The notes under the pieces were generated by a model. That model was not told the DNA's origin. It did not search any database and saw nothing but the letters and a program-made list of their open reading frames with translations. Shown here in pieces: positions 5,284 to 52,584 of a stretch of DNA of 53,615 nt (position 1 is its first letter; every line of letters begins with the position of its first letter). Source of the DNA: a virus; IMG/VR virus record IMGVR_UViG_3300045988_126023, positions 1 through 53,615 of that record; one strand, written 5' to 3'. Position numbers and translations under genes: made by a program.

Positions 5284-5287
5284 ACGC

Positions 5288-5316
5288 AAAACGGCTGAAC
5301 AAGCCGTTTTTATTTT
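5288..5316 (+). terminator. rho-independent terminator closing the fibre cluster
   Basis: aaaacggct-gaaca-agccgtttt is a 9-bp stem, followed by tatttt. Confidence 0.7.
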
Positions 5317-5338
5317 GAAATTTTAAGGAGGTCATATT

Positions 5339-7357: not shown

Positions 7358-8131
7358 ATGGCTGATAATGTAATCAGAAACGACATTGTTAAACTTGATT
7401 TTGAGGTCGAGGGTTTAAAAGAACTCAAAAAACTTCAAGATGAAACCAACGAATTAAAAAAGAAACTAACAGGCGGAATAGGCGACGACGCTCTTGACGG
7501 CCTGAAAAAAGGGGCAAATGACAGTGTAAAGCCCTTGAAGAATGTTAAAGAGCAAGCGGAAAAAGTCAAAAAATCCGTCACTGATATAGGCAAAAAAGCG
7601 GCCACAACGGCCTTTAAAGGCTTAAAAAAACTGGCTGGCATTTCATTCAAAGCCCTGACCGCTGGCATTGGTACGGCGGCTACAGCACTTGGATTTCTTA
7701 TGAAAAATGCTGTGTCGGCGTATTCAGAATATGAGCAGTTATACGGCGGTATGCAAACGCTGTTAGGTGCAAAAGGCGCAAAAAGTGTTGAAGAATATGC
7801 AAAACTAACAGGAAAATCCGTTGACGCAGTACAAGGCGAATACCAAAAGATGTTAGATAGTGAAAACTATGTAATGACGAAAGCTAACGACGCATTTAAA
7901 ACGGCGGGAATGTCAGCTAATGAATACATGGAAACTATCACGTCATTTGCGGCAGCAATGGTAACGAGTGTAGGCGGAGACACAAAAAAAGCGGCTGAAT
8001 TGTCCGACATGGCAATTCAAGACATGGCCGACAACGCCAACAAAATGGGCACTCCCTTAGAGAATGTTTCTATTGTCTATTCAAACCTTGCAAGAGGTAT
8101 GTATATGACATTGGATAACTTAAAACTGGGT
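7358..8131 (+). CDS. tape measure protein, exon 1
   Basis: Coiled-coil K/A-rich N-terminus, ending ...MYMTLDNLKLG at t8131. The remaining 22 codons of the ORF (to 8197) are read-through into the intron. Confidence 0.8.
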
Positions 8132-8899: not shown

Positions 8900-9023
8900 A
8901 GTACACTCAAGCGAGTGGAAGTGCAAGGGGCGGCGAAAGCCGTCAAGATATAGTCTGAACTATATGGCGACATATAGCAGCCGAAAGGCGGTTACGGATT
9001 AGCGACCCGTAGCGAACATATTG

Positions 9024-12000
9024 TATGCAGGAACAAAAGAGGGCGCTACACAAATGGTTAATGACGCTGCAAAGATAGATAAAAGCGTCAAGGCAAATGA
9101 TATATCGTATGCCAACCTTGTAAAAGCTATACACGCTGTACAGGTAAAAATGGATATTTACGGTACAACGTCAAAAGAAGCCTTTGGTACTATTCAGGGT
9201 TCAATGAATACCTTTAAGGCGGCGTGGGGAAATCTTATGCCTGCCTTGATACAGGGCGGCGACGCATTTGACCAGTGTGTAAACAATCTCGTTGATAGTA
9301 TTGTCGGATTTAAAGATGAAGCGACAGGAGAAATAAAAGGCGGTCTTATTAACAACCTTATGCCCGCAGCCGAAAAGGCTCTTGAGGGTATAGGGACATT
9401 GATTGATAGATTTGTTCCGATTCTCGCTGAACAATTTCCGAAAATCGCAAAAAGATTGATACCGCCACTGATAAAAGCAGCGGTGGAGTTGGTTAAAGGT
9501 CTTGTTAAGGCGCTACCCGACTTGGTAAAAATAATAGGCTCAACCTTTTACGATATTTTCAGTGAACAATTCCCCGCTGTTGCAAAAATAGGAAAATTCT
9601 TTCAAGACAATTCCGAAAAAATAGCCAAGGGTATAAAGATAATTATACCTACCGTTCTCGGACTTGCTGCGGCATTTAAAGGCTTTAAAGCTGTAAAGTC
9701 TTTGAAATCCCTTTTCGGCAATCTGAAAGGCGGTAAGGGCGGAGCAAGTGGCAACGGCGGTATTTTGAGCACTTTTCAGAATCTCGCAAAGATGAAAACC
9801 ACAACCGTCTTAAAAGGAGTGGCAAATCTCGCTATAATTCTCGGCGCACTTGGCGGATTGCTTTATATAGCAACAAAAGTGTTCCAAAGTGGCGTTGACT
9901 TCAAAGAGATGTTACAAGTCATTATCTTGGTGGGAGCTTTGGGAGCTGTTGGAATTGCATTGGCTAAATTCATTGATATAGCGGGTAAAATCAAAATAAC
10001 GACAGCACTTAAAGGCGTTGCGAACATTGCAATCATCATAGCTGGCTTGGGAGCGCTTCTTTGGGTGGCAACAAAGGTTTTTCAAGGTGGAGTAGACTTT
10101 AAAGAAATGATTAAAGTAATCACCTTAATAGGCATTTTGGGTGTCGTTGGTACAGTTCTTGCGGTATTCGCTGGAATTGTAGGGTTAATACCCGTTTCAA
10201 CAGTCGCTTTAGGGCTGGCTAACATTGCGATTATAGTTGTCGGTCTCGGCGCTTTGCTGTTTGTTGCTACAGAGGTATTTAAAAACGGTGTTGATTTCGG
10301 AAAAATGCTACAGGTCATTTCGCTAATTGGTATTCTTGGCGTTGTAGGCAGCGTTCTCGCTGTAATGGCTGGTATCATTGGTATTATACCTTTCCCGTTA
10401 GTAATTGCGGGGCTTGCAAATATAGCGACAGTAATAGGAGGCTTAGAGCTTATCCTTGTGGCGCTTGGTGCTTTGTCTAAAATCCCTGGATTTAATGGTT
10501 TGATTGAAAGTGGTGGCGAATTGCTGGCAACGACTTTCAAGGCCATAGGTAAGGCTATCGGTTCTCTTGTAGGCGGCTTTGCAGAGGGCGTGACAAGCAG
10601 TCTCCCTCAAATAGGAGAACATTTCGCAGGATTCGCCAAAGCGTTAGAGGGTGTAGATTTTACACCGATGAAAAGTTTTTTTGACGCATTAACTTCAATA
10701 AGCGGGTTGCCGAGTTCAGGCGGAATATTCCAGTTATTTACTGGAGACCCCTACACAGGGCTTATGAAGATGATACCGATACTGCCTTTGCTTGCTGCTT
10801 CCGCAAAAGCCTTTATGGTTATTGTAGGCGATATAAAGGATTTCAGCCCGATAAGCTCATTGCTTAGCGCTCTTTCAAATGTAAGTGCTATGCCGAGTTC
10901 AGGCGGATTTTTCCAGCTATTCACGGGCACTCCGTATGAGGGTTTGCTTGAAATGGTTAAGATTTTACCGTCGCTTGGTGCAGCAGCAAGTATATTCTTT
11001 AAATTCGTGGGGGGAATAACGGACTTTAGCCCGATAAGTTCACTTCTTAATGCTTTGGCCAGCGTCAAAGAAATGCCGAGTTCGGGAGGTTTCTTTCAAC
11101 TCTTTACAGGAGACCCGTATGCAGGATTATGTAAAATGGTATCATTGCTTCCTCTGCTCGGTGCAGCAACAGGTATATTCTTTAAACTTGTAGGCGGTGT
11201 AACAGATTTCAGCCCGATTTCTTCTTTGTTGAACGCATTAGCTTCTGTTAAAGAATTGCCTAAGTCTGGCGGCTTTGCTCAGTTTTTCACTGGCGACCCA
11301 TACGCTGGATTATGCGAGATGATGTTATTGTTACCGCCGCTTGGTGCGGCAGTTAGCGCATTTTTCAAACTTGTTGACGGAATAACTGATTTTAGCGTTA
11401 TATCTTCTTTGTTTAATACTCTGTCAAGTGTTAAGGATTTACCAAAAGCGGGAGGGTTTGCTCAGTTATTTACGGGAGACCCGTACAAAGCCCTTATCTC
11501 AATGGTATTTATTCTTCCCACACTCGGACAGTCGGTAAAGGCGTTCTTTAAGGCGATTGACGGTATTGACGATTTCAGCAAAATTTCCGCTCTTTTTGCA
11601 GAGCTTGGGCAGCTCGACAAATTAGTCGGGAAAGACGGAGGACTATTCAACGCAATAGGAGACTTCTTTAACGGAAGTGAAGATTCCGCCGTGGTAATGC
11701 TTGGTGCAAGCCTCAAAAGTTTTGCTTCAGACACAAAGGACTTTTTTGCTTTAGTAAACAGTGCTAACCTTAACAAACTTAACGGAATGTGGCTTGCCTT
11801 TGCAAATGTAAAAGGCTTAGATAGCGCAGTTTCTCAGATAGTAACTAAGATTTCCGAGTTACCTAAAAAAATGGGTGACGCTCTTAAACAGGGTGGCTCA
11901 AGTCTTAGTGACGCACTTGTTAAAGTGTGGAAAGACGCTGTGCAAGCTTCGGTAGCGCCAGTAAATAAAGTGCTTGACGCTGCAAACTGGATATTGAAAG

Positions 12001-13121
12001 AGTTCGGCTCAAATAAGCGAGTGATAACATGGAAACCTTATGCAAAAGGCACAAACGGCCATAAAGGCGGAAATGCACTTGTGAATGACGGAAACGGCGC
12101 TGAATTAGTCCAAATGCCTAACGGAGAAGCGTTTATACCTACAGGTAAAAATGTGCTGATTCCTAATGCACCGAAAGGAATGAAAGTATTACCCGCAGAG
12201 CAAACCGCACAGCTTATGGGTAAGAAATCGCCTACATTTGCGTATGCAGACGGAATAGGCGACATTGATATTTGGAGCTACATAGATAATGCAAAAGGCT
12301 TGACCTCCAAAATAGCGGACAGTATCAGCTATGACGGCTTGAGCGGCTTTAGACTTGGTGTAAGTCAGGGTATGGTAACAACCTTTACAGGAGCAATGAC
12401 AAACTGGGTTGATAAGCTATTTAAAGAAGAAGGAGTTTTAGGGCTTGCAAATTATGCAGCGTCTAAGGGCGTTGCTCAATGGAAATCTACCGTTATACGA
12501 GCCTTGAAAATGGAGGGGCTGTATAGCGCCGCAAATGTCGAAAGAACTTTATTCCAAATGCAGACAGAAAGCGGAGGAAATCCGAAAGCAATAAATCTGT
12601 GGGACAGCAATGCTAAAAAGGGCATACCCTCAAAGGGCTTAATGCAGGTAATTGACCCGACTTTTAAAGCGTATGCAAGAGCGGGCTTTGACAAAAATAT
12701 ATATGACCCGTTGAGCAACATTTTAGCGGCTATCAGATACGCTGTTGCAAGATACGGCTCATTAGCAAGAGCTTTTAGAGGTGTAGGTTATGCAAACGGC
12801 GGTTTTGCAAATAAACCGAGTATATTCGGCGAGGACGGTCTTGAAGCGGCTATTCCGTTGTCGAGAAATAAACGCAGCAGAGGGTTAAACCTTTGGGCGC
12901 AGACTGGCGAAATGTTGGGCGTTTCTTATTCACCAGAGGGAGACGCAGGATATTCTAACTATATCGAGAACAACACATATTCGCCACAATTCACGCTTAA
13001 TATAAGCGGAACGAGTGATGATAGAACAATGGCACGCAAGGTTAAAAACTGGGTTAAAGAAGCGTGGGAAGATGTTCTTGACACTTACGAAAGTAAAACG
13101 CCACAGACACAAGAAGTATAA
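9024..13121 (+). CDS. tape measure protein, exon 2 (TM-hairpin repeats, 61-aa repeats, C-terminal lytic transglycosylase domain)
   Basis: Begins YAGTKEGATQMVNDAAK. SLT motif FQMQTESGGNPKAINLWDSNAKKGIPSKGLMQV...YDPLSNILAAIRY. The spliced protein is 1,623 aa. Confidence 0.85.
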   Translation, partial: YAGTKEGATQMVNDAAKIDKSVKANDISYANLVKAIHAVQVKMDIYGTTSKEAFGTIQGSMNTFKAAWGNLMPALIQGGDAFDQCVNNLVDSIVGFKDEATGEIKGGLINNLMPAAEKALEGIGTLIDRFVPILAEQFPKIAKRLIPPLIKAAVELVKGLVKALPDLVKIIGSTFYDIFSEQFPAVAKIGKFFQDNSEKIAKGIKIIIPTVLGLAAAFKGFKAVKSLKSLFGNLKGGKGGASGNGGILSTFQNLAKMKTTTVLKGVANLAIILGALGGLLYIATKVFQSGVDFKEMLQVIILVGALGAVGIALAKFIDIAGKIKITTALKGVANIAIIIAGLGALLWVATKVFQGGVDFKEMIKVITLIGILGVVGTVLAVFAGIVGLIPVSTVALGLANIAIIVVGLGALLFVATEVFKNGVDFGKMLQVISLIGILGVVGSVLAVMAGIIGIIPFPLVIAGLANIATVIGGLELILVALGALSKIPGFNGLIESGGELLATTFKAIGKAIGSLVGGFAEGVTSSLPQIGEHFAGFAKALEGVDFTPMKSFFDALTSISGLPSSGGIFQLFTGDPYTGLMKMIPILPLLAASAKAFMVIVGDIKDFSPISSLLSALSNVSAMPSSGGFFQLFTGTPYEGLLEMVKILPSLGAAASIFFKFVGGITDFSPISSLLNALASVKEMPSSGGFFQLFTGDPYAGLCKMVSLLPLLGAATGIFFKLVGGVTDFSPISSLLNALASVKELPKSGGFAQFFTGDPYAGLCEMMLLLPPLGAAVSAFFKLVDGITDFSVISSLFNTLSSVKDLPKAGGFAQLFTGDPYKALISMVFILPTLGQSVKAFFKAIDGIDDFSKISALFAELGQLDKLVGKDGGLFNAIGDFFNGSEDSAVVMLGASLKSFASDTKDFFALVNSANLNKLNGMWLAFANVKGLDSAVSQIVTKISELPKKMGDALKQGGSSLSDALVKVWKDAVQASVAPVNKVLDAANWILKEFGSNKRVITWKPYAKGTNGHKGGNALVNDGNGAELVQMPNGEAFIPTGKNVLIPNAPKGMKVLPAEQTAQLMGKKSPTFAYADGIGDIDIWSYIDNAKGLTSKIADSISYDGLSGFRLGVSQGMVTTFTGAMTNWVDKLFKEEGVLGLANYAASKGVAQWKSTVIRALKMEGLYSAANVERTLFQMQTESGGNPKAINLWDSNAKKGIPSKGLMQVIDPTFKAYARAGFDKNIYDPLSNILAAIRYAVARYGSLARAFRGVGYANGGFANKPSIFGEDGLEAAIPLSRNKRSRGLNLWAQTGEMLGVSYSPEGDAGYSNYIENNTYSPQFTLNISGTSDDRTMARKVKNWVKEAWEDVLDTYESKTPQTQEV
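9798..10490 (+). repeat. in-frame tandem repeat, about 198 bp x 3.5, encoding paired transmembrane helices in the TMP
   Basis: Units (T/S)T.LKGVANxAIIxxGLGxLLxVATKVFQxGVDFKEMxxVIxLxGxLGVVGxVLA... recur at 66-aa spacing. Confidence 0.7.
10710..11624 (+). repeat. in-frame tandem repeat, 183 bp x 5 (plus a degenerate sixth), in the TMP
   Basis: P(S/K)(S/A)GGF(F/A)QLFTGDPYxGLxxMxxxLPxLGAAxxxFFKxVGGxTDFSPISSLLNALASVKE. Unit starts at 10710, 10893, 11076, 11259 and 11442. Confidence 0.85.
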
Positions 13122-22378: not shown

Positions 22379-22424
22379 TTTGTGCATTTTGCCAACTTGA
22401 TTTTTAACACAAAAGTGTTATAAT
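22379..22424 (+). promoter_or_regulatory. promoter cassette Pe1 (TTTGT-N4-TTTGC box, -35, extended -10)
   Basis: TTTGTgcatTTTGCcaacTTGATT-16-(gtgt)TATAAT. The conserved leader aaaggtacaaagtaaagaaagagg runs to the ATG at 22458. Confidence 0.65.
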
Positions 22425-26302: not shown

Positions 26303-26689
26303 ATGAAAGAAAGATTGAAAGAACTGATTGACGGCAATCCCGCCTATGTGTCAAATTCGGAATTGCTGGCCGAATATCTCATTGACAACGGTATAGTTGT
26401 GCCGCCGTATAGCACGAAAGACGATAGATACGAAAAGGAGGTTTTGACCGCAGCAATAAGAACATTTGGCGAAACCCACCAAGAGTGTTTAGCGACTGAG
26501 GAATGTGCTGAACTTATACAGGCTATAAACCATAAGCACAGAGGTAGAAAACACAACATGGCGGAAGAAATAGCAGATGTAGAAATTATGCTTGAGCAGT
26601 TAAAAATCATCAATAATTGTCGTGATGAAGTTGAAGAAATACATAATCAAAAAGTTAATAGGCTCTTTAATGTTGTGATTGATAGGTAG
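26303..26689 (+). CDS. MazG-like nucleotide pyrophosphohydrolase
   Basis: ECLATEECAELIQAINH...MAEEIADVEIMLEQLK fits the all-alpha NTP-PPase E..E...EE..D pattern. Confidence 0.5.
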   Translation: MKERLKELIDGNPAYVSNSELLAEYLIDNGIVVPPYSTKDDRYEKEVLTAAIRTFGETHQECLATEECAELIQAINHKHRGRKHNMAEEIADVEIMLEQLKIINNCRDEVEEIHNQKVNRLFNVVIDR

Positions 26690-27028: not shown

Positions 27029-28612
27029 TTATTTTAGTGGCTGTTGGTGCGTTTTTCGTTTAATAGATTTGTTTATCAATAGGGGGTTTATCGGGTGGCT
27101 TGCCCCCCTGTTTTTCCTCTTATCACCCCCGAGGGTGGAAAAATCCACCCTTAAATTAACTTCAAGGGTATCAGGATAAACAACGATACTATCAACAAAT
27201 GTGTTAAATACAACTTGTGCAAAATCAAAGTCAGGGTTATCTTTTAATTCCTCACGGAACTCTAATATCATATCTTTTATATCTTGAATATCAATAATGT
27301 TTAATTGTTCTAAATATAAATTTCTTTCAATTTGTTCTTCAATGTGTTTTCTTTCTTCTTTTAATGCATTGTTCTTTTCGTCGAGTACCTTTCTTTCCAT
27401 TCCGCCGTCAAGATACAACTCCATTAGTCTTGCTTGTTTATCTTTTACTTTTTCAAGCTGCTTTCTTAACTTTGCTGTTGGAATTAACGGTGCTTTTCTT
27501 TCGTTTTCAAGTTGAGTTGTCACACTAACTGCTATTTCATCAATAGCGTTGTCTGTTAGGACATTTTCTGTTATATTATCAATTACAAGTTTTTCGTAAT
27601 AATCTTTGTTTAAAGATGTGTTAGTACAGCCGTTTTGATTTTTTATTTTACCTTGACATTTGTAATAAGCGGACATATCACCGTTCTTGTTTTTCTTTTT
27701 TGCACCACTTCCGCAATAAGTAAATCCGCAAATACCGCAACGCAATTTGCCAGTCATTAGATATTTTCTTTTTCGGTGTTTTGGTTTGTTTGCGTCTTTC
27801 CTCAATTTTTGTACTCTTTCCCATAAATCTTCATCAACTATTGGATTTTTGATAATACCCTCTAAACGAATAACTTCCGTTTGAGTGTGATTGTAAATGA
27901 AATTACCTATATACTTTTCGTTTTGCAATAAATCGGTAATTGTGCGAGTGTTGAACTTCCTGCCGTATTGGTTGCGGTAGCCCTCACTGTTTAAGCGTTT
28001 AACAATTTGTGTTTTAGGAACGCCGTCCGCATATTCTTTAAATATCCGATAAATAATCGGTGCGTTTTCATCAGGATAATAGTAACCCTCATCATCAACG
28101 GACAAGCCGAGCAGTTTGCCACCGCCTGTATGCTTGCCTTTTAAGGCGTTTTCTAACATTCCCTTTTTGACCTCTAAAGCAAGGTTTTCCGAATAGTATT
28201 CGTCCATTGCTTCAATAAGGCTTTCAAGAATACGCCCCTCGGGACTATCGTCAATCGGTTGAGTAACAGAAACAACCTTAATATCAATATCCCTTAAACG
28301 CTTCTTATATAAGGCACTATCATATTTATTACGAGCAAAACGGTTAAATTTATGCACTAAAACACCGTCAATATCGTGTTTACCCTTTAGAATATCATCA
28401 ATCATTATTCGGAAGTCGTCACGATTATCCGTTTTTGCTGATTGCGCTTCATCCGTATAAATTGCAACGAGTTTAATGTCGTTATCTTCACAGTAGTTAC
28501 GAATTGCCCTTAATTGAGCGTCGATACTTTCGTCACGCTGATTGTTGGAAGAAAATCGGGCGTATGCTACCACCCTTTTTATATCTGCTTTATTCTTGAT
28601 GAATTTCCCCAT
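27029..28612 (-). CDS. int: large serine recombinase (integrase)
   Basis: VVAYARFSSNNQRDESIDAQ (catalytic Ser motif), a recombinase domain (IIYRIFKEYADGVPKTQIVKRLNSEGY), Cys-rich zinc ribbon and a coiled coil. The start is ATG 28612 after AAAGGAGC. Confidence 0.9.
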   Translation of the reverse strand: MGKFIKNKADIKRVVAYARFSSNNQRDESIDAQLRAIRNYCEDNDIKLVAIYTDEAQSAKTDNRDDFRIMIDDILKGKHDIDGVLVHKFNRFARNKYDSALYKKRLRDIDIKVVSVTQPIDDSPEGRILESLIEAMDEYYSENLALEVKKGMLENALKGKHTGGGKLLGLSVDDEGYYYPDENAPIIYRIFKEYADGVPKTQIVKRLNSEGYRNQYGRKFNTRTITDLLQNEKYIGNFIYNHTQTEVIRLEGIIKNPIVDEDLWERVQKLRKDANKPKHRKRKYLMTGKLRCGICGFTYCGSGAKKKNKNGDMSAYYKCQGKIKNQNGCTNTSLNKDYYEKLVIDNITENVLTDNAIDEIAVSVTTQLENERKAPLIPTAKLRKQLEKVKDKQARLMELYLDGGMERKVLDEKNNALKEERKHIEEQIERNLYLEQLNIIDIQDIKDMILEFREELKDNPDFDFAQVVFNTFVDSIVVYPDTLEVNLRVDFSTLGGDKRKNRGASHPINPLLINKSIKRKTHQQPLK

Positions 28613-28631
28613 TATGTTGCTCCTTTGATGT

Positions 28632-28955
28632 TTATTCAGGCATTTCAAGATACATTTTCATTACTTCTTTATAAAGCCGTTCTCGTTCTTCTTTTGGAAT
28701 GTCTTTGTTGAGAAAAATATTTTTAGCACGGCTTAACAATTCAAAACTTTCATTTTCTGTTGATACACCGAAATAATCAAGCCCCACGCCGTAAAACTCT
28801 GCAAAGCGACGCAAATCGGATAAATGCGGTGAACGACGCCCGACCTCATAATTACTTATCGTTGCACGGCTTAACCCTAATCTTTCAGATAATTCTTGTT
28901 GTGTCAATTTTCGCCCCTTTCTTAAAGTTTTCAATTTGTGTCCTATCGTACACAT
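28632..28955 (-). CDS. CI-like repressor (XRE HTH)
   Basis: LKTLRKGRKLTQQELSERLGLSRATISNYEVGRRSPHLSDLRRFAEFYGV. AGGAGGCG SD. Divergent from the early rightward genes. Confidence 0.75.
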   Translation of the reverse strand: MCTIGHKLKTLRKGRKLTQQELSERLGLSRATISNYEVGRRSPHLSDLRRFAEFYGVGLDYFGVSTENESFELLSRAKNIFLNKDIPKEERERLYKEVMKMYLEMPE

Positions 28956-29439: not shown

Positions 29440-29484
29440 TTTGGTTACTTTGCGAATAGAAATTTGTTTCAAAATGACTATAAT
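29440..29484 (+). promoter_or_regulatory. promoter cassette Pe4
   Basis: TTTGGttacTTTGCgaATAGAA-17-TATAAT. Follows a weak terminator at 29351-29375. Confidence 0.55.
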
Positions 29485-42190: not shown

Positions 42191-42391
42191 TTACTCTGAA
42201 AAAACCGCCGCCAGTATTTCATCTTGTTCGATGTAAGTCAATTCAAAATCAGCGTCAAAAGCTATCTTGCCGATACGGTTCATAATGTGCTGCACATAAT
42301 ACGGCGAATGGCTTAACTCATCAAGAGAATTGTATTTAAGCTGTTCGGCCATTTCAGTTTTTATAGTGTCAATAATTGTTTGCTTAGTCAT
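42191..42391 (-). CDS. hypothetical protein (minus-strand moron)
   Basis: 66 aa from the ATG after AAGAAAGAGGG. Driven by Pe5. Confidence 0.55.
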   Translation of the reverse strand: MTKQTIIDTIKTEMAEQLKYNSLDELSHSPYYVQHIMNRIGKIAFDADFELTYIEQDEILAAVFSE

Positions 42392-42424
42392 TTTTGAAGC
42401 CCTCTTTCTTTTGATTACATTCGT

Positions 42425-42470
42425 ATTATAACACCATTGTGTCACAAAGTCTATTGACAAAATACACAAA
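42425..42470 (-). promoter_or_regulatory. promoter cassette Pe5 (minus strand)
   Basis: The minus strand reads TTTGTgtatTTTGTcaATAGAC-18-(ggtgt)TATAAT. Back-to-back with Pe6. Confidence 0.6.
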
Positions 42471-42484
42471 TTTAAGCCTTAAAG

Positions 42485-42529
42485 TTTGTACACTTTGCGA
42501 ATTGAAATATATCTCAAATGTGTTATAAT
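42485..42529 (+). promoter_or_regulatory. promoter cassette Pe6
   Basis: TTTGTacacTTTGCgaaTTGAAA-16-(tgtgt)TATAAT, followed by the leader aaagacacagtaaagaaagagagg. Confidence 0.65.
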
Positions 42530-43908: not shown

Positions 43909-45123
43909 GTGAAGATAAACCCCGCTTATTTTCAATATTTGAGTAAAAACCAGTTTGTTCAAATATTCTTTGGCGGTTCATCAAGCGGCAAATCCTATTT
44001 TTTAGCACAAAAGGTTGTCTTGGATAACATTAACGGCGTAAACTGGCTTGTTTGCCGTAATGTAGCGAGTACCATAAACAAATCTACATACAACGAAGTG
44101 TGCAAGGCCATTTCAAATATGGGGCTTATGGAATACTACAAAATCAACAAATCAAGTATGACTATTACTTGCACTCTGAACGGGCGGCAAATTCTGTTTG
44201 CAGGCTTGGACGACGCTGAGAAAATCAAGTCAATCACGCCCGCTGACAGCGTATTACATAGAGTATGGATAGAAGAAGCTACAGAGGTAAAGTATTCGGC
44301 ATATAAGCAGCTTACAAAGCGCTTGAGAGGTCACAGCGACATTTCAAAGTGCGTTATTTTGTCATTTAACCCTATTTTAAAGTCGCATTGGATATATAAA
44401 ACCTTTTTCGGCGCTTGGGTAGATGATAAAAACTACTATGAAGATGAAAACCTCTCAATCTTAAAGACGACATACAAGGATAATTTGTTTTTGACTGCTG
44501 ATGATATAAAGCAGTTAGAAGATGAAACAGACCCGTATTATTACAATGTTTATTCTCTGGGAAACTGGGGAATTCTCGGCCATGTTATTTTTAGAAATTG
44601 GCGAGTAGAAGATTTAAGCGAACAGATACCGCAGTTTGACCGTATATTTTGCGGCTGCGACTTTGGTTTTTCGAGTGACCCGAACGCCTTAATTAAAGTG
44701 CATTTAGATAAAACCCGTAAAAAGATTTATGTGTTTGACGAATGGTATCAAGCAGGAATGACAGATGATGAATTGCTGCAAGTATGCAATAAATTTGTAG
44801 GTAATCAGTATGTCACTTGCGACAGTGCCGAGCCTAAAACAATAGATTATCTTGCTTCAAACGGAATAAAGGCCGTCGGTGCGGTGAAAGGCGCTGACAG
44901 TATAAACAGAGGTATTCGGTGGCTACAAGGCTATGAAATTATTGTTGATGTTCATTGCCAAAACTTCAAGAACGAGATAGAACAATACCACTGGGCAGAA
45001 GATAAGTTCGGAAATGCTATGGCGAGACCTGTAGATATGAACAACCATTTAATTGACGCTTTGCGGTATGCGCTGTGTGATGAAATTCTGGCCGCAGAAG
45101 TGCAGGCGGGGAGAAGAATATAA
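43909..45123 (+). CDS. terminase large subunit (PBSX-type)
   Basis: GTG start. Walker A FFGGSSSGKSYFLAQK. Acidic nuclease motifs in the C-terminal half (CGCDFGFSSDP, HLIDALRYAL). Confidence 0.85.
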   Translation: MKINPAYFQYLSKNQFVQIFFGGSSSGKSYFLAQKVVLDNINGVNWLVCRNVASTINKSTYNEVCKAISNMGLMEYYKINKSSMTITCTLNGRQILFAGLDDAEKIKSITPADSVLHRVWIEEATEVKYSAYKQLTKRLRGHSDISKCVILSFNPILKSHWIYKTFFGAWVDDKNYYEDENLSILKTTYKDNLFLTADDIKQLEDETDPYYYNVYSLGNWGILGHVIFRNWRVEDLSEQIPQFDRIFCGCDFGFSSDPNALIKVHLDKTRKKIYVFDEWYQAGMTDDELLQVCNKFVGNQYVTCDSAEPKTIDYLASNGIKAVGAVKGADSINRGIRWLQGYEIIVDVHCQNFKNEIEQYHWAEDKFGNAMARPVDMNNHLIDALRYALCDEILAAEVQAGRRI

Positions 45124-45432: not shown

Positions 45433-46890
45433 ATGGCAAGAAATAAACGGCAATACTATCCAGATTTGACGGCTTTTGTTGACGAAATCGAAAAAAACGG
45501 TATAACTCCCGTGCTGCTTTCCAAAATCATTGAGAGGCATAGACCAAATGCACGATATAACGAAGCTTTGTTTAATAGGTATGCCACAATGGACGGCGCT
45601 TTACCTATTCAAAAGCGTAAACCGAGATTTGAAGAAAGCAAGCCTATAAACAACAAAATCAATAACGACTTTTTCAGCGAAATCGTAGACTTTAAAACGG
45701 GCTATTTTGCGGGTGAGCCGATTGCATACGGCTATAGCAAAAGCGATGAAGCCGAAGATGTGACAGGCGGTAAAGAAGCTGTTGACGCAGCAACAAAGGC
45801 ATTGACAGACTTTACAACCCGCAGCAATATGTACGGTGTGGATATGGAAACAACCAAATATGCAAGTATCTATGGCTATGCTGGCCGATTATTCTATATA
45901 GACACCGAGGGCAATGAAAGAGTAATGCCCGTACACGGATTCCAGACTATTATACTATCGAAAACCGATATATCAGAGCCACAGTATGCAATACGCTATT
46001 ACAAAACATACGACATTAACAACGTTGAAACATGGATAGTAGAATTTTACGACGATAAAAACATTTATACTTTCAAGGGCTATTTGTCGCAGCTCCAACA
46101 AGACGGAGAGCCTAAACCGCATATGTTTGACTATTGCCCGTTACAAGGAATTGCAAACAACAAAGAAATGATGGGCGACGCTGAAAAGGTGCTTTCGCTT
46201 ATTGACGATTATGACAAAGTTTTGTCTGACAATTCAAATGAGGTCGAAGCTTTTGTACACGCCTATTTGATTTTTGAGGGCTTACGCATTGACGACAAAA
46301 CAATTGAAGAAGGGCAAAAGAGCGGCTCTTTTGTATTTCCCGCAAGCGGAACACAGCAAGGTAAAGCATATTTCCTTACAAAAGACATCAATGACGCTTT
46401 TACAGAGCACCATTTACAGCGTTTAGAGGATAATATATATCGTTTTTCTCGTACTCCCAACCTGACAGATGAAACCTTTGGAGACGCAAGCGGTGTAAGC
46501 CTTAAATTTAAGCTGCACGGCTTGGAGACAAAGTGCGGAATGTTCGAGGCCAAAATGTTAGACGCTGCACAGTATATGTTTAAAGTGCTTGCGAGTGCGT
46601 GGAGAAAAAAGGCTATACAGTTTGACCCGTTGCAAGCGACACTTGAATTTAGCCGTAATTTCCCGCTCGACAAATTAAGTGAAGCACAGGCGGCACAGGC
46701 ACAAATAGCCGCAGGGTTGCCGAAAGAGTGGGTATTCGCTCAGATTTCGGGCATTGATGATGTTGATTACATTATGGAACTGCTTGAAAGAGAAAAAGAA
46801 GATGTAACGTCAATGTATGAAAACAACGAAACAAACGAAACAGACAACAAAAAGCCAAATGAAAAGCAGGCCAGCAATGAGCAGCTTTAA
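45433..46890 (+). CDS. portal protein (SPP1 gp6-like)
   Basis: 485 aa downstream of terL. FFSEIVDFKTGYFAGEPIAYGY motif. Acidic/Asn-rich tail. Confidence 0.75.
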   Translation: MARNKRQYYPDLTAFVDEIEKNGITPVLLSKIIERHRPNARYNEALFNRYATMDGALPIQKRKPRFEESKPINNKINNDFFSEIVDFKTGYFAGEPIAYGYSKSDEAEDVTGGKEAVDAATKALTDFTTRSNMYGVDMETTKYASIYGYAGRLFYIDTEGNERVMPVHGFQTIILSKTDISEPQYAIRYYKTYDINNVETWIVEFYDDKNIYTFKGYLSQLQQDGEPKPHMFDYCPLQGIANNKEMMGDAEKVLSLIDDYDKVLSDNSNEVEAFVHAYLIFEGLRIDDKTIEEGQKSGSFVFPASGTQQGKAYFLTKDINDAFTEHHLQRLEDNIYRFSRTPNLTDETFGDASGVSLKFKLHGLETKCGMFEAKMLDAAQYMFKVLASAWRKKAIQFDPLQATLEFSRNFPLDKLSEAQAAQAQIAAGLPKEWVFAQISGIDDVDYIMELLEREKEDVTSMYENNETNETDNKKPNEKQASNEQL

Positions 46891-46915: not shown

Positions 46916-48493
46916 TTGCCTGAATCAAAAACGAGCCTTAATGAAATGCTTTATGATGTTAAGCGGATTGCAAATCATAGAGAGCAGTTAAGCGAAAAGA
47001 AAATAAAGTCAATATATAGCTCCCTTATGAAAGATTTAAGGGCTTTTTTGGGTGAGAGCTATGAAAAGTACAGCGACAGTGACGGGCGTTTTTATTTATC
47101 ATACTTAGACGCACAAAACAAAAGAGCAAAATTCTTACAAGAAATAGCCGAAAGGATAGACACTATTTCGCCCAAACTCAAAAAGGAAATGCTTGACCTT
47201 GTAGATGATACATACAAAAGATGTTATGAGGGTATGTCTGAGGCCGTCAGAACCGCCGACACAAGGCGAAAGCTGGTAAATGCAACAAAGGACTTGAGTG
47301 TTCAGCCAGACGAGCTAAAACAGGCTGTAAACAACAATATAGACAAGCTGACATTGCCCGCCGTAATGGAAAAGCACCGTGCAGAGGTTATATATCAAGT
47401 GCAGCAGGCTTTGACAATAGGCCTGATAAACGGCGATAGGTACGAGCAAATGGCAAAGCGCATTTCTGAGCGGGTCGGTGTAAGTGAAACAAAAGCCCGC
47501 AATATAGCCCGCACAGAGAGCCACAGAAATGTTGAGAGCGGGTTTATGGATTGTGCTGAGCATATACAGAAAGGTATTGACGGCAGCGATTATATTTATG
47601 CTGCAACTTGGCACAACATGGGCGACGAAAGAGTTAGGCCACAGCAAAGGCGCAAGACAAAAAAAGGCTGGAAAACTACACTAAGCAGAAATGGCGCAAA
47701 CCATATTATAATGGAGGGGCAGACCGTTAAAGTCGGTGACGAGTTTAATTTAGGCGGTGGCGTTAAAGCAAAAGCCCCGTCAAAAAGCGGTGTAGCGGCT
47801 CATGACTGTAATTGCCGTTGCTTTCTTGAATACAATCTAATGACATTAGCGGAATTTGAAAAAGCAAGCGGTAAGACCGTTAAAACCGCAAGTATTAACA
47901 GCGCTATCAAACGACAAATGAATGATAACGGCATAGCAAACCTTGAGCTACAACGAACTACGGACACAGTAGCATTTGATAAGGCAATAAGAGAAATGAA
48001 AAAGCAAGGCGGGGCGGCGGCTTGTGTTGATACTCACCCGCTCGAAGAACTAAAAGACTTTAAACTGTTTCTTTCTGAAAATCAAATGGCAGGTGTAGCG
48101 GTTAAGCCTGACGGGGATATAACAGCAGTATTCAAAAGCGCAGATTACAAGGTAAAAGGTGGCGTAAATGACCTCATTATAACAGCAAGGGCAAACGGCG
48201 GCGAAAAAATGGATTGTTACGGCAGCTTTCTTGTGAACTCATATGAAAAATGCGGGTATAAACCTGTTGCCCGAATACCGTTTAATGCTGATTATGTGGA
48301 CGACGCTTATTTGCTTGCTACAAAGCCAGATGTTTACATAATGATGAAAAACACGGACGACTTAGAAACCGTTATAATGAAAAACGCAAAAAAATTATAT
48401 AAAACCTCTACACAAGAAATGCTCGATAACTTACCGACATTTACAGATTATGACGCAGGCCTGAAATATCGTAATACGCTTTTAGCAAAGTAG
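46916..48493 (+). CDS. MuF / SPP1 gp7-like minor head protein with a GNAT-like C-terminal module
   Basis: MuF core ARNIARTESHRNVESGF...ERVRPQQ...AAHDCNCRCFLEY (aa ~150-305). aa ~345-480, AGVAVKPDGDITAVFKS..VKGGVNDLIITARANGGEKMDCYGSFLVNSYEKCGYKPVARIPF, looks like a GNAT motif A. Confidence 0.75.
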   Translation: MPESKTSLNEMLYDVKRIANHREQLSEKKIKSIYSSLMKDLRAFLGESYEKYSDSDGRFYLSYLDAQNKRAKFLQEIAERIDTISPKLKKEMLDLVDDTYKRCYEGMSEAVRTADTRRKLVNATKDLSVQPDELKQAVNNNIDKLTLPAVMEKHRAEVIYQVQQALTIGLINGDRYEQMAKRISERVGVSETKARNIARTESHRNVESGFMDCAEHIQKGIDGSDYIYAATWHNMGDERVRPQQRRKTKKGWKTTLSRNGANHIIMEGQTVKVGDEFNLGGGVKAKAPSKSGVAAHDCNCRCFLEYNLMTLAEFEKASGKTVKTASINSAIKRQMNDNGIANLELQRTTDTVAFDKAIREMKKQGGAAACVDTHPLEELKDFKLFLSENQMAGVAVKPDGDITAVFKSADYKVKGGVNDLIITARANGGEKMDCYGSFLVNSYEKCGYKPVARIPFNADYVDDAYLLATKPDVYIMMKNTDDLETVIMKNAKKLYKTSTQEMLDNLPTFTDYDAGLKYRNTLLAK

Positions 48494-48593
48494 TTATAAG
48501 CGCAAAGTTGAAAAAGAGGTAATTGACGTTCAGAAAAAGGCGTCCAAAGAGGGAATAAAAGTCGCTGTTACAAAAGAAGATGTCACAGAGAAT

Positions 48594-49007
48594 ATGCGTG
48601 ATGTTGTTCGTTATACCTGCTTGAGTGAAAAAGGCGACCTTGTAAAAGATTATAATAAAATTATGGGTACTCTTGAAAATGACGGTTATAAGGTTGTAAG
48701 GGTAAAGAACACATTTAAGCCCGACGCACCATATAAGGGAATAAACACGATTGTTCAAGACCCAGACGGCTATAACTTTGAACTGCAATTCCATACCCCG
48801 CAGAGCTTTGAATTAAAGAACGGTATATTACATGAACTCTATGAAAAAGAGCGGCTTGTTACAACGCCACAGGCTGAAAAGGTAATCTTACAAAAGCGAA
48901 TGAAAGAAATCTCAGACAGCATTGTTTTCCCTGATAATGTTGATAAGATTAAGGCCTTTAATGATTTACCTGACTTATTAGAGAAATTAGCCAAAAAAAC
49001 AAAGTAA
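48594..49007 (+). CDS. RelA/SpoT-homologue (toxSAS-like) nucleotide pyrophosphokinase domain, N-terminally truncated or frame-broken
   Basis: DVVRYT, PYKGINTIV, ELQFHT and HELYEKER align with the SAS motifs D-x-x-G-x-R, GYRSxH, EIQIRT and H..YK. The frame is open back to 48486 (YKRKVEKEVIDVQKKASKEG) with no start codon or SD. Confidence 0.6.
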   Translation: MRDVVRYTCLSEKGDLVKDYNKIMGTLENDGYKVVRVKNTFKPDAPYKGINTIVQDPDGYNFELQFHTPQSFELKNGILHELYEKERLVTTPQAEKVILQKRMKEISDSIVFPDNVDKIKAFNDLPDLLEKLAKKTK

Positions 49008-49009
49008 AG

Positions 49010-49055
49010 TTTGTGCATTATGCGAATAGACTTTATACTGCAAAAGTGTTATAAT
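49010..49055 (+). promoter_or_regulatory. promoter cassette Pe7
   Basis: TTTGTgcatTATGCgaATAGAC-18-(agtgt)TATAAT, starting 3 nt after the stop of the RSH-like ORF. Confidence 0.6.
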
Positions 49056-49104
49056 AAGCTTGCAAGGTGAGAGAGACAACACCGAGCAGAAAGAGGTATT
49101 TATT

Positions 49105-49287
49105 ATGAAAGACTATGTTGTAAGAATTTTAAACTATACCGACGATATTATAGCTGGCGCAATAGTAAAGGCACGAAATAAAAAAGAGGCGATAGAAGCT
49201 TATAAGCGAGAACACCCTATAGAATCAAAATATATGTCAATCTATGATAGATTTGCAGTTTATGAATACGGCACAATTTTCAAATAA
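49105..49287 (+). CDS. hypothetical protein (60 aa), first gene of the Pe7 cassette
   Basis: The ATG follows AGAAAGAGG. MKDYVVRILNYTDDIIAGAIVKARNKKEAIEAYKREHP... Confidence 0.5.
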   Translation: MKDYVVRILNYTDDIIAGAIVKARNKKEAIEAYKREHPIESKYMSIYDRFAVYEYGTIFK

Positions 49288-49311
49288 TGTGATAAAGAAA
49301 GGGGTAAGTAT

Positions 49312-49512
49312 ATGCGATACTATGAAACTACAGCCGACCTATTAAGAGTTGACGACAGCGGCACTATTGAGCAGTACGACATTGATTTGAAGATGTGGCG
49401 ACCTGCTGACAGCGGTATGAGTGGCATTTATAGCGGTGATATTGAATGTACTGAAATAAGCAAGGCCGAAGCTGATAAAGCGCTCAAAAGGTGGGCTGCT
49501 AATGCTGATTAG
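49312..49512 (+). CDS. hypothetical protein (66 aa), translationally coupled to the hydrolase
   Basis: AAAGGGG SD. The stop overlaps the start of 49502..49918. Confidence 0.5.
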   Translation: MRYYETTADLLRVDDSGTIEQYDIDLKMWRPADSGMSGIYSGDIECTEISKAEADKALKRWAANAD

Positions 49513-49918
49513 GGCGTTTATAATTGCATATAAAGCGCACAGAGGGCAAAAAGACAAAGCGGGCAAGGCATATATATTGCACCCCGTTTTTGTTGCTATG
49601 CACACAAAGGGCATTAAGCGAAAAACCGTTGCATTGTTGCATGATGTTGTGGAAGATACCGAAATCACATTTGAAGATTTAAAACGAAAAGGATTTGATG
49701 ATGAAATAGTGAGAGCGGTACAGGCTATAACCAAAATCAAAGGTGAAAATTATCAAGACTATTTGCAGCGGGTAAAACAAAACACCATTGCAAAAGATGT
49801 AAAATTGGCTGATTTGCAGCACAATAGCGACTTGCACAGAATTAAAAAAGTAACAGAAAGTGACATTATAAGAAATCAGAAATATCAAGCTGCTATTCTT
49901 TACCTTAGTACAGCATAA
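49502..49918 (+). CDS. small alarmone hydrolase (HD-domain (p)ppGpp/(p)ppApp hydrolase, Mesh1/SAH-like)
   Basis: AHRGQKDKAGKAYILHPVFVA, ALLHDVVEDT and KLADLQHN give the H...H-x-x-x-x-x-x-HD...D layout of the RelA/SpoT hydrolase domain. 138 aa, single domain. Confidence 0.8.
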   Translation: MLIRAFIIAYKAHRGQKDKAGKAYILHPVFVAMHTKGIKRKTVALLHDVVEDTEITFEDLKRKGFDDEIVRAVQAITKIKGENYQDYLQRVKQNTIAKDVKLADLQHNSDLHRIKKVTESDIIRNQKYQAAILYLSTA

Positions 49919-50014
49919 TAAACAAAATAGTTTTGAAATCTTGCTCATAATATTGTCTATTTTGTCAATTTACTAAAAAAGTAATAAATGTTATAATAGT
50001 ATAGAGGTGAAATT

Positions 50015-50233
50015 ATGAGTTCTGATAACCTTTTCCGTAAATATCAAGGCTTGACGGCTGACGAAATAATTTCACAGCTCGAAAACCAGTACAAAGATGA
50101 TGAAGAAGCATTAGAAAGCATTGAAAGAGCAAAGACCGATATTGCATATATAAGAGCGCAAAAGGATTATGACGGCCAAACGCCCAAACAAAAAGCTTTA
50201 GAATGTGCGGGCACTCTGGACTACTGGAATTAA
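50015..50233 (+). CDS. hypothetical acidic protein
   Basis: 72 aa. AGAGGTGA SD, preceded by an extended -10 (tgtTATAAT 49989-49997). Confidence 0.5.
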   Translation: MSSDNLFRKYQGLTADEIISQLENQYKDDEEALESIERAKTDIAYIRAQKDYDGQTPKQKALECAGTLDYWN

Positions 50234-50309
50234 ACAGCACTTTTGACATTTCCTTTCTCTCGGGGGGCGTTGCGGCTTTCGGTTATCTCCCGCAGCGCTC
50301 CCAAAATTT

Positions 50310-50384
50310 GCTGATGTGGCGCAATGGCAGCGCAACTGATTTGTAATCAGTAGGTTGTCCGTTCAAGTCGGACTATCAGCTCCA
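50310..50384 (+). tRNA. trnT: tRNA-Thr (anticodon UGU), CCA-encoded
   Basis: Hand-folded cloverleaf: acceptor GCTGATG/TATCAGC, D arm GCGC-AATGGCA-GCGC, anticodon arm ACTGA-TTTGTAA-TCAGT, variable loop AGGTT, T arm GTCCG-TTCAAGT-CGGAC, then TCCA. U8, A14, GG, U33 and TTC are present. Confidence 0.85.
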
Positions 50385-50385
50385 T

Positions 50386-50420
50386 AAAAAGAGTGTTTCA
50401 TATCGAAACACTCTTTTTTT
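50386..50420 (+). terminator. rho-independent terminator after the tRNA
   Basis: agagtgtttc-atatc-gaaacactct followed by tttttt. Confidence 0.85.
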
Positions 50421-50523
50421 GCGTACAAATGGCACTTTTCTATATGGAGAGTGCTTTTTTTATAAACTTGGCTTTTCTATAAGGAAAGCGCAATAAATTC
50501 TATATGGATTTGGAGGAAAAAAC

Positions 50524-51153
50524 ATGGCAGAAGAAACAACTGCAACCAACACCGCAACAAATACCACAACACAGGCGACAGCCGCAACAAATACCACAAC
50601 AGCAGCGGCGAACACAGAAGCTAAAGAAAAGGCAGAACAGACCGTTTTATCAGCAGAGGAAATCCAAAAGCTGATACAGAAAACGGTAGACCAGAGAACA
50701 GCCGATTATGGTAAGAAGATTGCAACCTTGCAGGAGGAAAACAAAACACTCAAAAAGGCGAACATGACCGCAGAGGAAATTCAAAAGGCAGAGCGAGAAG
50801 AATTTGAAAAGCAGAAAGCCGAAGTTGAATTAGGAAAGAGGCAGTTACACGCTCACAGAGTAGTAGCAGGTGCAGGGTATGGCGACAATGCCGACGAGGT
50901 TGTTGAAATGGTTCTGGGTGATTCGGACGAAAAAACAGACGAGCGGTTAAAGAATTTTAAAGCGCTTGTTGATAAGCTTGTGGCCGACACCGTGAAAAAG
51001 ACTTTTGAGACAAACGGCAGAACGCCTAACAGTGGTAATTCAAACGGCGGTAACGAAAAAAAGGAAAACGGCTTTGCTGCTGAGTTAGGCAAAAAGCAGG
51101 CTGAAACCTTAAAACAGTCTAACGACATTCTAAAACATTATTATGGAGGTTAA
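50524..51153 (+). CDS. capsid scaffolding protein
   Basis: 209 aa. Thr/Ala/Asn-rich N-terminus, coiled-coil E/K-rich core. Sits upstream of the decoration and capsid genes. Confidence 0.6.
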   Translation: MAEETTATNTATNTTTQATAATNTTTAAANTEAKEKAEQTVLSAEEIQKLIQKTVDQRTADYGKKIATLQEENKTLKKANMTAEEIQKAEREEFEKQKAEVELGKRQLHAHRVVAGAGYGDNADEVVEMVLGDSDEKTDERLKNFKALVDKLVADTVKKTFETNGRTPNSGNSNGGNEKKENGFAAELGKKQAETLKQSNDILKHYYGG

Positions 51154-51507: not shown

Positions 51508-52584
51508 ATGAAACTCACAGATATTTTTACCGCAGACGCTATAGCCCTGAACTATACAAATGCGGCAAGTAACTCAATTCCTTATCTTGGTACAGGTCTT
51601 TTCCCCGCTCAGAAAAAGGCTGGTCTTGACCTGAAATGGATTAAGGGACACAACGGTCTCCCCGTTTCTCTTGCTCCGTCCGCTTTTGACGCAAAGTCTA
51701 AATTCCGTGACAGAGTGGGAATTTCTATCAATGAAACCCAAATGGCATTTTTCCGTGAGAGTATGCTTGTTAAAGAAGCAGACGAACAGGAAATCATGCG
51801 AGTACAGGACGCAAATGACCCCTATGCTGCACAGGTACTTACCAACATTTTCAACGACACTCAGACGCTTATCAATGGCGCAAATGTTGTCCCTGAAAGA
51901 ATGATTATGCAGCTCCTTGCCCCTATCGGAGGCAGTATGGGTATTGCCATTAAGGCGAACGGCGTTGACTATACCTACAATTACGACCCCGACGGCTCTT
52001 GGAAGAAGGAGCATTATGCAAAGATTGAGACTGCAACCGACAAATGGAGCGCCGCTGACACTTGCGACCCCGTTCGTGATATTGAAAACGCCCTTGACGC
52101 ACAGGAGCAGGCAACAGGCAACCGCCCCGCCGTACTTCTTATGTCTAAGGCAACATTTAACTATATCAAGAACAGCAAAAAGGTACAGGCTGGCGTTCTT
52201 GCTCGTAATACTACTTCGACCGTGGATTATATCAATTACACCACTGCCAGAGTACAGAGCTACATTCAAGAGGAACTCAACGTATCTATTGTTATTTACA
52301 ACAAGCAGTTTAAAGACGAGAGCGGCACAGCTAAGAAATTCTATCCTGACAATATCGTAATGATGTTGCCGCAGGGAACTCTTGGTAATACCTATTATGG
52401 TACTACTCCCGAGGAGCGCACACTTGCTCAGAAATCGTCTGCAAGCGTCTCTATTGTCAATACTGGCGTTGCTGTTGCTGTAACCATTACCGACGACCCT
52501 GTAAACACTAAAACTACTGTTTCGGAAATTGTTCTTCCTTCTTTCGAGAGAGCTAATGATTGTTACGCCCTTGAGGTGGTTTAA
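51508..52584 (+). CDS. major capsid protein (gpE-like family)
   Basis: 358 aa. LGTGLFPAQKKAGLDLKWIKGHNGLPVSLAPSAFDAKSKFRDRVG...ETQMAFFRES is typical of the Phage_cap_E family. Confidence 0.75.
   Translation: MKLTDIFTADAIALNYTNAASNSIPYLGTGLFPAQKKAGLDLKWIKGHNGLPVSLAPSAFDAKSKFRDRVGISINETQMAFFRESMLVKEADEQEIMRVQDANDPYAAQVLTNIFNDTQTLINGANVVPERMIMQLLAPIGGSMGIAIKANGVDYTYNYDPDGSWKKEHYAKIETATDKWSAADTCDPVRDIENALDAQEQATGNRPAVLLMSKATFNYIKNSKKVQAGVLARNTTSTVDYINYTTARVQSYIQEELNVSIVIYNKQFKDESGTAKKFYPDNIVMMLPQGTLGNTYYGTTPEERTLAQKSSASVSIVNTGVAVAVTITDDPVNTKTTVSEIVLPSFERANDCYALEVV

Follow-up and report, generated by a model that had tools for sequence, protein, structure and literature searches.

An immunity unit of predicted Apk2-IapK-Aph1 type beside a broken MuF toxin gene in a temperate phage genome

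To which toxin, if any, does a small phage-encoded hydrolase answer when its gene lies behind a promoter cassette and directly downstream of an open reading frame (ORF) related to the RelA/SpoT homologues (RSH)? This question is raised by positions 49010-49918 of the IMG/VR virus record IMGVR_UViG_3300045988_126023, which was analysed over its whole length of 53,615 nucleotides (nt), here called the window. Since its first and last 55 bases are identical, the window is regarded as a circularly closed phage genome of 53.6 kb. It corresponds to the ENA scaffold BENG15-1_SAMEA2784510_METAG-scaffold_722 and belongs to a temperate phage, given that a serine recombinase and a helix-turn-helix (HTH) repressor are encoded. 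In an initial annotation, a promoter cassette after the RSH-like ORF, followed by ORFs of 60, 66 and 138 amino acids (aa), was described at this place, and the arrangement was recovered in the present analysis (cassette at 49010-49055, genes at 49105-49918). The same annotation proposed a split toxin-antitoxin (TA) pair, in which an early-made hydrolase balances an injected or late-made RSH effector.

The analysis leads to a different answer. It is very probable that 49010-49918 represents the immunity half of a polymorphic toxin module of Apk2 type, lying among the head genes of a temperate phage of a gut-type host, and that the toxin half is dead in this genome. In the module as published, the MuF head protein bears a C-terminal (p)ppApp synthetase, Apk2, while IapK (or BcTis1) occludes the active site of the synthetase and the hydrolase Aph1 degrades its product (Ahmad 2023, PMC10083569; Paulet 2025, PMC12226406; Bartoli et al. 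2023, as cited in PMC12226406). The earlier suggestion of a hydrolase acting as antidote to the adjacent RSH toxin was therefore right in kind (PMC10083569, PMC12226406), but there is no active pair here, as the toxin is broken, and instead of a new split TA the locus appears to hold this known three-part module. Below, the 60-aa and 66-aa ORFs are called o60 and o66, the hydrolase gene aph and the toxin domain Apk2tox; related loci in other genomes and contigs carry labels such as L005.

The hydrolase and the small proteins encoded before it

The 138-aa protein holds the motifs AHRGQ, YILHP and LLHDVVEDT and a downstream aspartate, and its start overlaps the end of o66 by 11 nt, both as first described. 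It is also recognised by the hidden Markov model (HMM) profiles that the initial annotation had named for a check: Pfam HD_4 scores 32.6 bits, above its curated cutoff of 27.2, and TIGR00691 (spoT_relA) matches at 2.6e-18 over its N-terminal hydrolase portion. A further match, at 2.5e-48, was obtained to phrog_990, “metal-dependent phosphohydrolase”. The closest solved structure is 7SMG (phmmer E = 3.7e-32), that of Aph1 from Bacteroides caccae, the founding (p)ppApp hydrolase (PMC10083569). Query residues 2-136 align with chain residues 8-142 over 135 positions without a gap. The alignment includes the 53 C-terminal residues by which the Aph1 family is defined, and places the catalytic residues H13, H27, H47-D48, E51-D52 and D104 opposite their counterparts in 7SMG.

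Ahmad and others set Aph1 apart from ppGpp hydrolases by six residues, namely D24, R96, D116, R119, K133 and Y134, and reported that the combination D24R and R119A permits ppGpp hydrolysis (PMC10083569). All six are identical in the phage protein (D18, R90, D110, R113, K127 and Y128), and K25, A26 and N114 are likewise conserved with Aph1. Among proteins of annotated phages, the nearest are the Aph1 proteins of S. pneumoniae (55% identity), Mannheimia (51%) and Pasteurella (48%) prophages, which are those studied by Paulet et al. (PMC12226406), while the best matches in species-representative genomes, from metagenome-assembled genomes of Clostridia and Lachnospiraceae, are at most 58% identical. 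Because of the full-length homology to 7SMG, the six specificity residues and the nearest relatives, the protein was filed as an Aph1-family hydrolase, whose activity on (p)ppApp we infer. The specificity residues point to (p)ppApp and not to ppGpp, and the gene should be named accordingly in annotation, as a (p)ppApp hydrolase instead of a ppGpp hydrolase.

The gene o66 lies between the toxin and hydrolase genes, in the same slot as the reference IapK (69-72 aa), and overlaps aph as said; in the distinct phage L091 the equivalent ORF has 73 aa and again overlaps by 11 nt. With a profile built from four o66 sequences, hhalign against IapK returned E = 0.02, which is too weak. Shuffle controls gave a small but consistent signal: the IapK profile ranked the o66 family above 99.4-99.9% of the shuffles (p ~1e-3), and the o66 profile scored the S. 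pneumoniae IapK above all 3000 shuffles. After the o66 family had been enlarged to 19 sequences by an exhaustive HMMER search, hhalign against six IapK proteins gave 65 co-linear columns at a probability of 94% and with E = 1.4e-7, spanning nearly the whole length of both families. By this profile-level match, o66 appears to be an IapK homolog, and by analogy it is predicted to block the active site of Apk2tox. Its AlphaFold2 (AF2) model has a mean confidence (pLDDT) of 90.2. For the small ORFs, profile searches against the PDB returned noise only, and tblastn of both o60 and o66 against annotated phages returned nothing.

The other small gene, o60, has homologs in related phages (100% identity in L008, 40% in L013), solely at the same position, and is not present in L006 or in relatives without the module. 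Its AF2 model (pLDDT 86.5) has a beta-beta-alpha-alpha-beta layout, for which Foldseek gives no significant fold match in the PDB. The gene travels with the toxin module and not with domain X, the conserved region that follows the MuF domain in the head protein, which argues against o60 as a domain-X antidote. The initial annotation had considered the small ORFs as antidotes to a GNAT-like module in this region. That label found no support in Pfam or in PDB sequence searches, and o66 is better explained as a putative IapK-type inhibitor of the Apk2 toxin. L004, a phage with MuF-X and without the toxin module, has neither small ORF. In comparison with L013, the ratio of nonsynonymous to synonymous substitution rates (dN/dS) is 0.33 for o60, 0.19 for o66 and 0.18 for the hydrolase, so that o66 and aph are under purifying selection. 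Within the toxin-dead lineage the same measure is uninformative, with just 0-10 differences per gene from L005.

The interrupted toxin gene and its intact relatives

The head-morphogenesis gene upstream of the immunity genes encodes a MuF domain at aa 161-304, followed by domain X of about 200 aa (window ~47900-48490, MuF residues ~325-525). Domain X is common to more than 100 MuF proteins of 520-560 aa and matched no Pfam family and no PDB sequence. In relatives without toxin, MuF-X ends natively at 527-558 aa with “...YRDxLLxAQxGK*”. In intact relatives, in contrast, a single ORF runs through MuF-X and Apk2tox, with 746 aa in L005 and L012, 747 aa in L006 and L008-L011 and 738 aa in L013, and its stop is exactly the stop of the 137-aa RSH-like ORF of the window. 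These forms of 738-747 aa came to light in other contigs, among the genes next to o66; a large-database search with the joined MuF-toxin sequence returned MuF-X proteins of ~530 aa only, the 746-aa forms being hidden in 90%-identity clusters with shorter representatives. The in-frame fusion of MuF to the synthetase, present in L005, L006, L008-L013 and L091, is missing in the window.

By using MAFFT alignments with L005 (97.8% identical), L006 (84.5%) and L013 (67%), the difference was traced to one gap of 149 columns, found in the window only and placed right after 48486. The junction reads TTTTAGC^AAAGTAG, with AAA as microhomology. The deleted 149 bp correspond to ~50 codons, encoding ...KQKKGILLDAPEKHYTLSVTKEPAITETLQKAVSKTNGKLSGLDFRLKTE, and include the syn1 motif SGLDFRLKTE, which aligns with GFDQRLKS of SaSAS. 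As a loss of 149 bp cannot keep the reading frame, MuF-X comes to a stop at 48493, with what follows of the toxin out of frame. The synthetase frame is open from 48486, and its first start codon, at 48594, is that of the called 137-aa ORF.

What is left of the toxin retains syn2 (RYT), syn3 (GIN), syn4 (FH) and a syn5-like HELYE, with syn1 gone. RYT and GxN are the signatures of Apk2 (PMC12226406), and the remnant carries both. It is 40-46% identical to the S. pneumoniae and Mannheimia Apk2 proteins (40-43% in tblastn, with E = 2e-35 and 3e-34), and in tblastn this homology begins 84 nt or more upstream of the remnant's ATG, through a stretch without in-frame start. Its relatives in annotated phages (Streptococcus, Mannheimia, Aggregatibacter) are all MuF C-termini. 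The designation “RSH-like” holds insofar as the ORF is related to RSH proteins and to the small alarmone synthetases (SAS), but there is no Pfam RelA_SpoT match, and the match to the 207-aa SAS in PDB 8VX3 (SaSAS) is limited to residues 88-203. The 137-aa ORF appears to be a pseudogene remnant of MuF-X-Apk2tox and should be labelled as such in annotation.

The exact truncated product of 525 aa was found on 4 contigs and the 137-aa call on 5, in assemblies from ENA and Logan. The remnant differs from intact L005 at 2 of 516 nt, which indicates that the deletion is very recent. Since toxin-less MuF-X proteins end natively in a way similar to the truncated product of the window, “...YRNTLLAK*”, the function of the protein in the head is probably unharmed. 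A further lesion was found in L016 (contig logan:ERR14842858_17147, ~2405-2420), where AGA is changed to TGA at the syn1 arginine of GLDFRLK in a toxin gene 99.4% identical to intact L005, with the downstream immunity genes intact. This stop would be a second, independent knockout at the same toxin motif.

Two other explanations of the junction were examined and discarded. The MuF C-terminal DAGLKYR does not represent syn1 (AGLDFR in Apk2), as toxin-less MuF-X proteins share this tail and the true syn1 lies in the missing 149 bp. Programmed frameshifting at the MuF stop was likewise dismissed, as a -1 slip at A-AAG hits an early stop.

Promoter, cassette exchange and the reading of the locus

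Two nt lie between the end of the upstream ORF (49007) and the start of the promoter cassette (49010). The cassette consists of an upstream box TTTGTGCATTATGCGAA, a -35-like TAGACT (49027-49032) and an extended -10 element TGTTATAAT (49047-49055), and the promoter-like site TAGACT-17-TATAAT with upstream TG scores 10/12. The strict pattern TTTGNNNANTNTNNNAAN{22,23}TATAAT occurs five times in the genome (22379+, 29440+, 42485+, 42470- and 49010+) and not once in 100 shuffles. The recurrence of the element described initially as “Pe7” was therefore confirmed in five clear copies, but not the seven or more that its label implies. The copy at 29440 faces the repressor and heads the RecT and replication genes, and that at 42485 heads small ORFs running into the terminase genes. 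At 42425-42529 two cassettes stand back to back in opposite directions, the minus-strand one leading to a small gene at 42191-42469.

In L005, L006, L008, L013 and L016 the cassette is kept, each time directly behind the stop of the toxin. A copy is likewise kept in L091, a distinct phage with a toxin of 59% identity and a MuF protein that is without domain X; there the unit runs from promoter through an IapK-sized ORF, Aph and two tRNAs to a terminator. The 5' leader at 49056-49104 is almost invariant even in L013, whose flanking genes have diverged strongly; its hairpin GGTG...CACC is weak (minimum free energy -7.1 kcal/mol, z = -2.75) and the leader has no Rfam match. From this pattern and its conservation, the antidote genes are predicted to have a sigma-70-type promoter of their own, and the whole, with promoter, genes and terminator, would be a moron-like unit. 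No terminator was found between toxin stop and promoter, so the immunity genes could be transcribed both alone and by late read-through. Native promoters or orphan immunity for Apk2-IapK-Aph1 are not discussed in the field literature available for comparison.

Comparison with L008 revealed how the segment moves. The stretch ~48024-49940 of the window is 93-99% identical to L008, amid a diverged backbone in which the portal and the N-terminal part of MuF are 66-84% identical and the scaffold ~50%; it follows that the end of domain X, toxin, promoter, o60, o66 and aph are moved as one. This indicates that a toxin-immunity segment of ~1.9 kb was recently exchanged as a cassette between backbones. 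Near-identical MuF-X relatives occur with and without the toxin, and L004 has no Apk2, IapK or Aph. The slot between MuF-X and scaffold is occupied there by a 137-aa minus-strand gene (7638-8051) and in L092 by four small ORFs (5186-5959), unrelated cargo that marks the slot as a hot spot for variable genes.

Downstream, o72 lies outside the exchanged segment and is 55% identical to a 69-aa gene in L004, where a cassette-type promoter precedes it although the toxin module is missing. Between o72 and the terminator stands the sole tRNA of the genome, tRNA-Thr(UGU). The same tRNA was seen downstream of Aph in L005 (5999-6073), L006 (6136-6211) and L091 (5488-5639, together with tRNA-Gln), and it was not seen in the module-less L004 and L092 nor in the module-bearing L013, a sample too small for a link.

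The likeness to the published Apk2-IapK-Aph1 module extends to gene order. The reference order of terminase, portal, MuF-Apk2, an ORF of 68-72 aa, a hydrolase of 137-140 aa and scaffold/capsid is that of the window; the hydrolase is 51-55% and the toxin domain 40-46% identical, and the inhibitor is homologous at profile level. The window differs in that the toxin of its group is appended to a MuF protein already bearing domain X (738-747 aa when intact), that an extra small gene is present (o60; ORFs of 89 aa and 74 aa in relatives), that tRNA-Thr and a terminator follow, and that the toxin of this genome is inactivated. The promoter here occupies a toxin-immunity gap of 82-97 nt, whereas the reference iapK starts 1-2 nt after the apk2 stop or overlaps it, which leaves no room for such an element.

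Other systems stand further away. Tas1(Apk1)-Tis1 of P. aeruginosa uses PAAR delivery by the type VI secretion system instead of MuF, and has no hydrolase immunity (Ahmad et al. 2019, as cited in PMC10083569); toxin and o66 gave no direct match to Tas1 or Tis1 in PDB sequence or fold searches. The Bxa-BAH system shares a MuF-carried head-module toxin with one enzymatic and one binding immunity protein, and differs in its ADP-ribosyltransferase chemistry and in its immunity enzyme (PMC11699363). The toxic SAS (toxSAS) with small alarmone hydrolase (SAH) antitoxins, such as FaRel-ATfaRel, and the phage SAH PaSpo resemble the locus in that what an RSH-type toxin makes is detoxified by a small HD hydrolase (Jimmy et al. 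2020, as cited in PMC10083569). They are unlike it in being bicistronic chromosomal or prophage TA systems, without MuF carrier and without a second immunity protein of binding type. FaRel2 structures match the toxin only at E ~1. The locus is not a classical bicistronic toxSAS of type II, as the intact toxin forms the C-terminal domain of a protein for virion morphogenesis, encoded in the head operon, and two immunity genes stand behind a separate promoter.

Thus, in intact relatives, Apk2tox on MuF-X would drain ATP and make toxic (p)ppApp, o66 would block the toxin's active site in the manner of IapK, and the Aph1-type hydrolase would convert (p)ppApp back to ATP/ADP. The antidotes, with o60 as the first gene of their unit, would be transcribed from their own promoter independently of the late head operon, and late read-through would also cover them. 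In this genome, the 149-bp deletion would have given a near-native MuF-X end and a start-less toxin remnant, leaving the antidotes as orphans. These may shield the lysogen or the infected cell from the (p)ppApp toxins of co-circulating toxin-intact relatives, or alternatively may simply be too young to have decayed.

Several points weigh against this reading. BLASTP of o66 against IapK gave no match, and Foldseek with the o66 model found nothing in the PDB at E <= 0.001, with Tis1 not among the 50 hits listed, in a search for which small proteins are hard. No function could be assigned to o60, which matched nothing in Pfam, PHROG or NCBIfam. The deletion is known from metagenome assemblies, and the 4 contigs that carry it may share samples. 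As it is so recent, the intactness of the immunity genes is not yet evidence of selection on them as orphans. The same type of promoter heads other units, including one that leads to the terminase, and the “early-type” character given to it initially is not established, with copies heading both replication and terminase-leading units. More generally, all parts are known here through their sequences and predicted structures.

Among the rival explanations, an active 137-aa ORF, acting as a late or injected effector that an early hydrolase balances in a functioning, temporally split pair, has the real gene order and separate promoter in its favour and plausibly fits the intact relatives L005, L006 and L013. 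For the window itself it is very unlikely: syn1 and ~85 residues at the N-terminal side of the SAS fold are missing from the ORF, its homology extends upstream of the ATG where there is no start codon, the deletion has put it out of frame with MuF-X, and the ATG at 48594 has no clear ribosome-binding site before it. An assembly artefact, in which the real phage has an intact 746-aa MuF-X-Apk2tox and the assembler made the gap, is suggested by the origin of the window in a single metagenome scaffold, by the nearness of 149 to a typical short-read length and by flanks that share just AAA. It is judged highly improbable, in view of the identical 525-aa and 137-aa calls on 4 and 5 contigs in both ENA and Logan assemblies and of the unrelated knockout at the same motif in L016.

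It is unlikely, though less so than either of these, that the hydrolase, with or without the small ORFs, serves mainly as counter-defence against host toxSAS (of FaRel, CapRel or PhRel type) or bacterial (p)ppApp toxins and was for that reason kept after the loss of the toxin. The independent promoter would suit this role, and the phage SAH PaSpo reportedly neutralises several toxSAS (Jimmy et al. 2020). Only 3 of the 69 genome loci with Aph collected here have Apk2tox upstream. Most Aph1 homologs are unlinked to Apk2 in the published survey as well (PMC10083569), and Aph1 proteins cross-protect non-specifically (PMC12226406). In this lineage, however, the hydrolase always occurs with an IapK-type inhibitor and a toxin or its remnant, in one recombining cassette, and its specificity residues are of (p)ppApp type. 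The same residues, with D24 and R119 kept as D18 and R113, and the tight linkage to Apk2tox and IapK make it extremely unlikely that the protein is a general ppGpp hydrolase that reprograms the stringent response of the host together with the MazG-like enzyme and has no tie to a toxin, even though the HD_4/SpoT hydrolase match, the presence of a MazG-like gene and the label “(p)ppGpp synthase/HD superfamily hydrolase” given by one source would fit.

With the immunity half of an Apk2-type module as the preferred reading, the locus adds nothing new on the enzymes. Its new elements are modest: an autonomous, conserved immunity promoter, an extra small gene, cassette exchange between backbones and two independent toxin knockouts. 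With its own promoter and terminator, here and in L091, immunity may be made when the late-operon toxin is not, in lysogens or early in infection. The natural role of MuF-carried toxins was stated as an open question by Paulet and others (PMC12226406), and the natural variation seen here, with its own promoter, cassette exchange and a toxin knocked out twice at the same motif with immunity intact, offers testable hints. It is conceivable, though only tentatively proposed, that the antidotes form a separately promoted mobile unit that outlives the toxin, and that toxin-dead “cheater” phages recur through syn1 knockouts, protected against the virion-borne synthetase of intact relatives by antidotes expressed from the prophage or early in infection. 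If true, the Apk2 module would be both weapon and shield in competition between phages or between lysogen and phage, and would give a first handle on the role of MuF toxins.

Feature positions and further observations on the genome

Features of the window named in the text, with positions, strand where given, and the basis of assignment or a remark
Feature	Position	Strand	Basis or remark
Large serine recombinase	27029-28648	-	Lysogeny gene
HTH_3 repressor	28632-28955	-	Lysogeny gene
Terminase	43909-45123		Head module, first listed
Portal	45433-46890		Head module, after terminase
MuF-X head-morphogenesis gene	46916..48493	+	525 aa; Pfam Phage_Mu_F 4.1e-12
149-bp deletion junction	48486..48489	+	MAFFT alignment with L005, L006, L013
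Apk2tox 3' remnant	48486..49007	+	tblastn to Apk2; PDB 8VX3; phrog_7625 MuF C-terminus
Promoter cassette (predicted)	49010..49055	+	Pattern recurrence, conservation in relatives
Small leader hairpin	49062..49087	+	Weak; folding energy
o60, 60 aa	49105..49287	+	Small protein co-travelling with module
o66, 66 aa, IapK/Tis1-type predicted non-enzymatic immunity protein	49312..49512	+	Profile-profile match
Aph1-family hydrolase (predicted), 138 aa, single HD domain	49502..49918	+	Pfam HD_4; 7SMG
Second promoter-like site, TTTACT-17-TATAAT with TG	49969..49997	+	Belongs to backbone gene o72
o72, backbone small gene outside toxin-immunity module	50015..50233	+	Homolog in L004
tRNA-Thr(UGU)	50310..50384	+	Rfam tRNA 66.3 bits; ARAGORN
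Intrinsic-terminator-like hairpin	50431..50455	+	Closes inserted transcription unit before scaffold gene
Scaffold gene (DUF4355)	50524-51153		Head module, after immunity region
Major capsid	51508-52584		Head module, last listed

An Rfam scan of 48400-50600 matched the tRNA alone and no cis-regulatory family, and Megablast of the region against annotated phages matched nothing. The MazG-like ORF reported initially at 26303-26689 is well matched by phrog_2245 (3.1e-24) but falls just under the 22-bit cutoff of Pfam MazG, with 21.2 bits; it lies in an accessory block downstream of the cassette copy at 22379, beside DUF2958 and ASCH-domain genes. At the start of the scaffold gene (50540-50601), short direct repeats CCGCAACAAATACCACAACA give a low-complexity N-terminus rich in Thr, Ala and Asn. 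The longest ORF (9021-13121, 1366 aa), which we take to be a tape-measure or other tail protein, holds diverged repeat copies at 10699-11518 with a spacing of 183 nt (61 codons).

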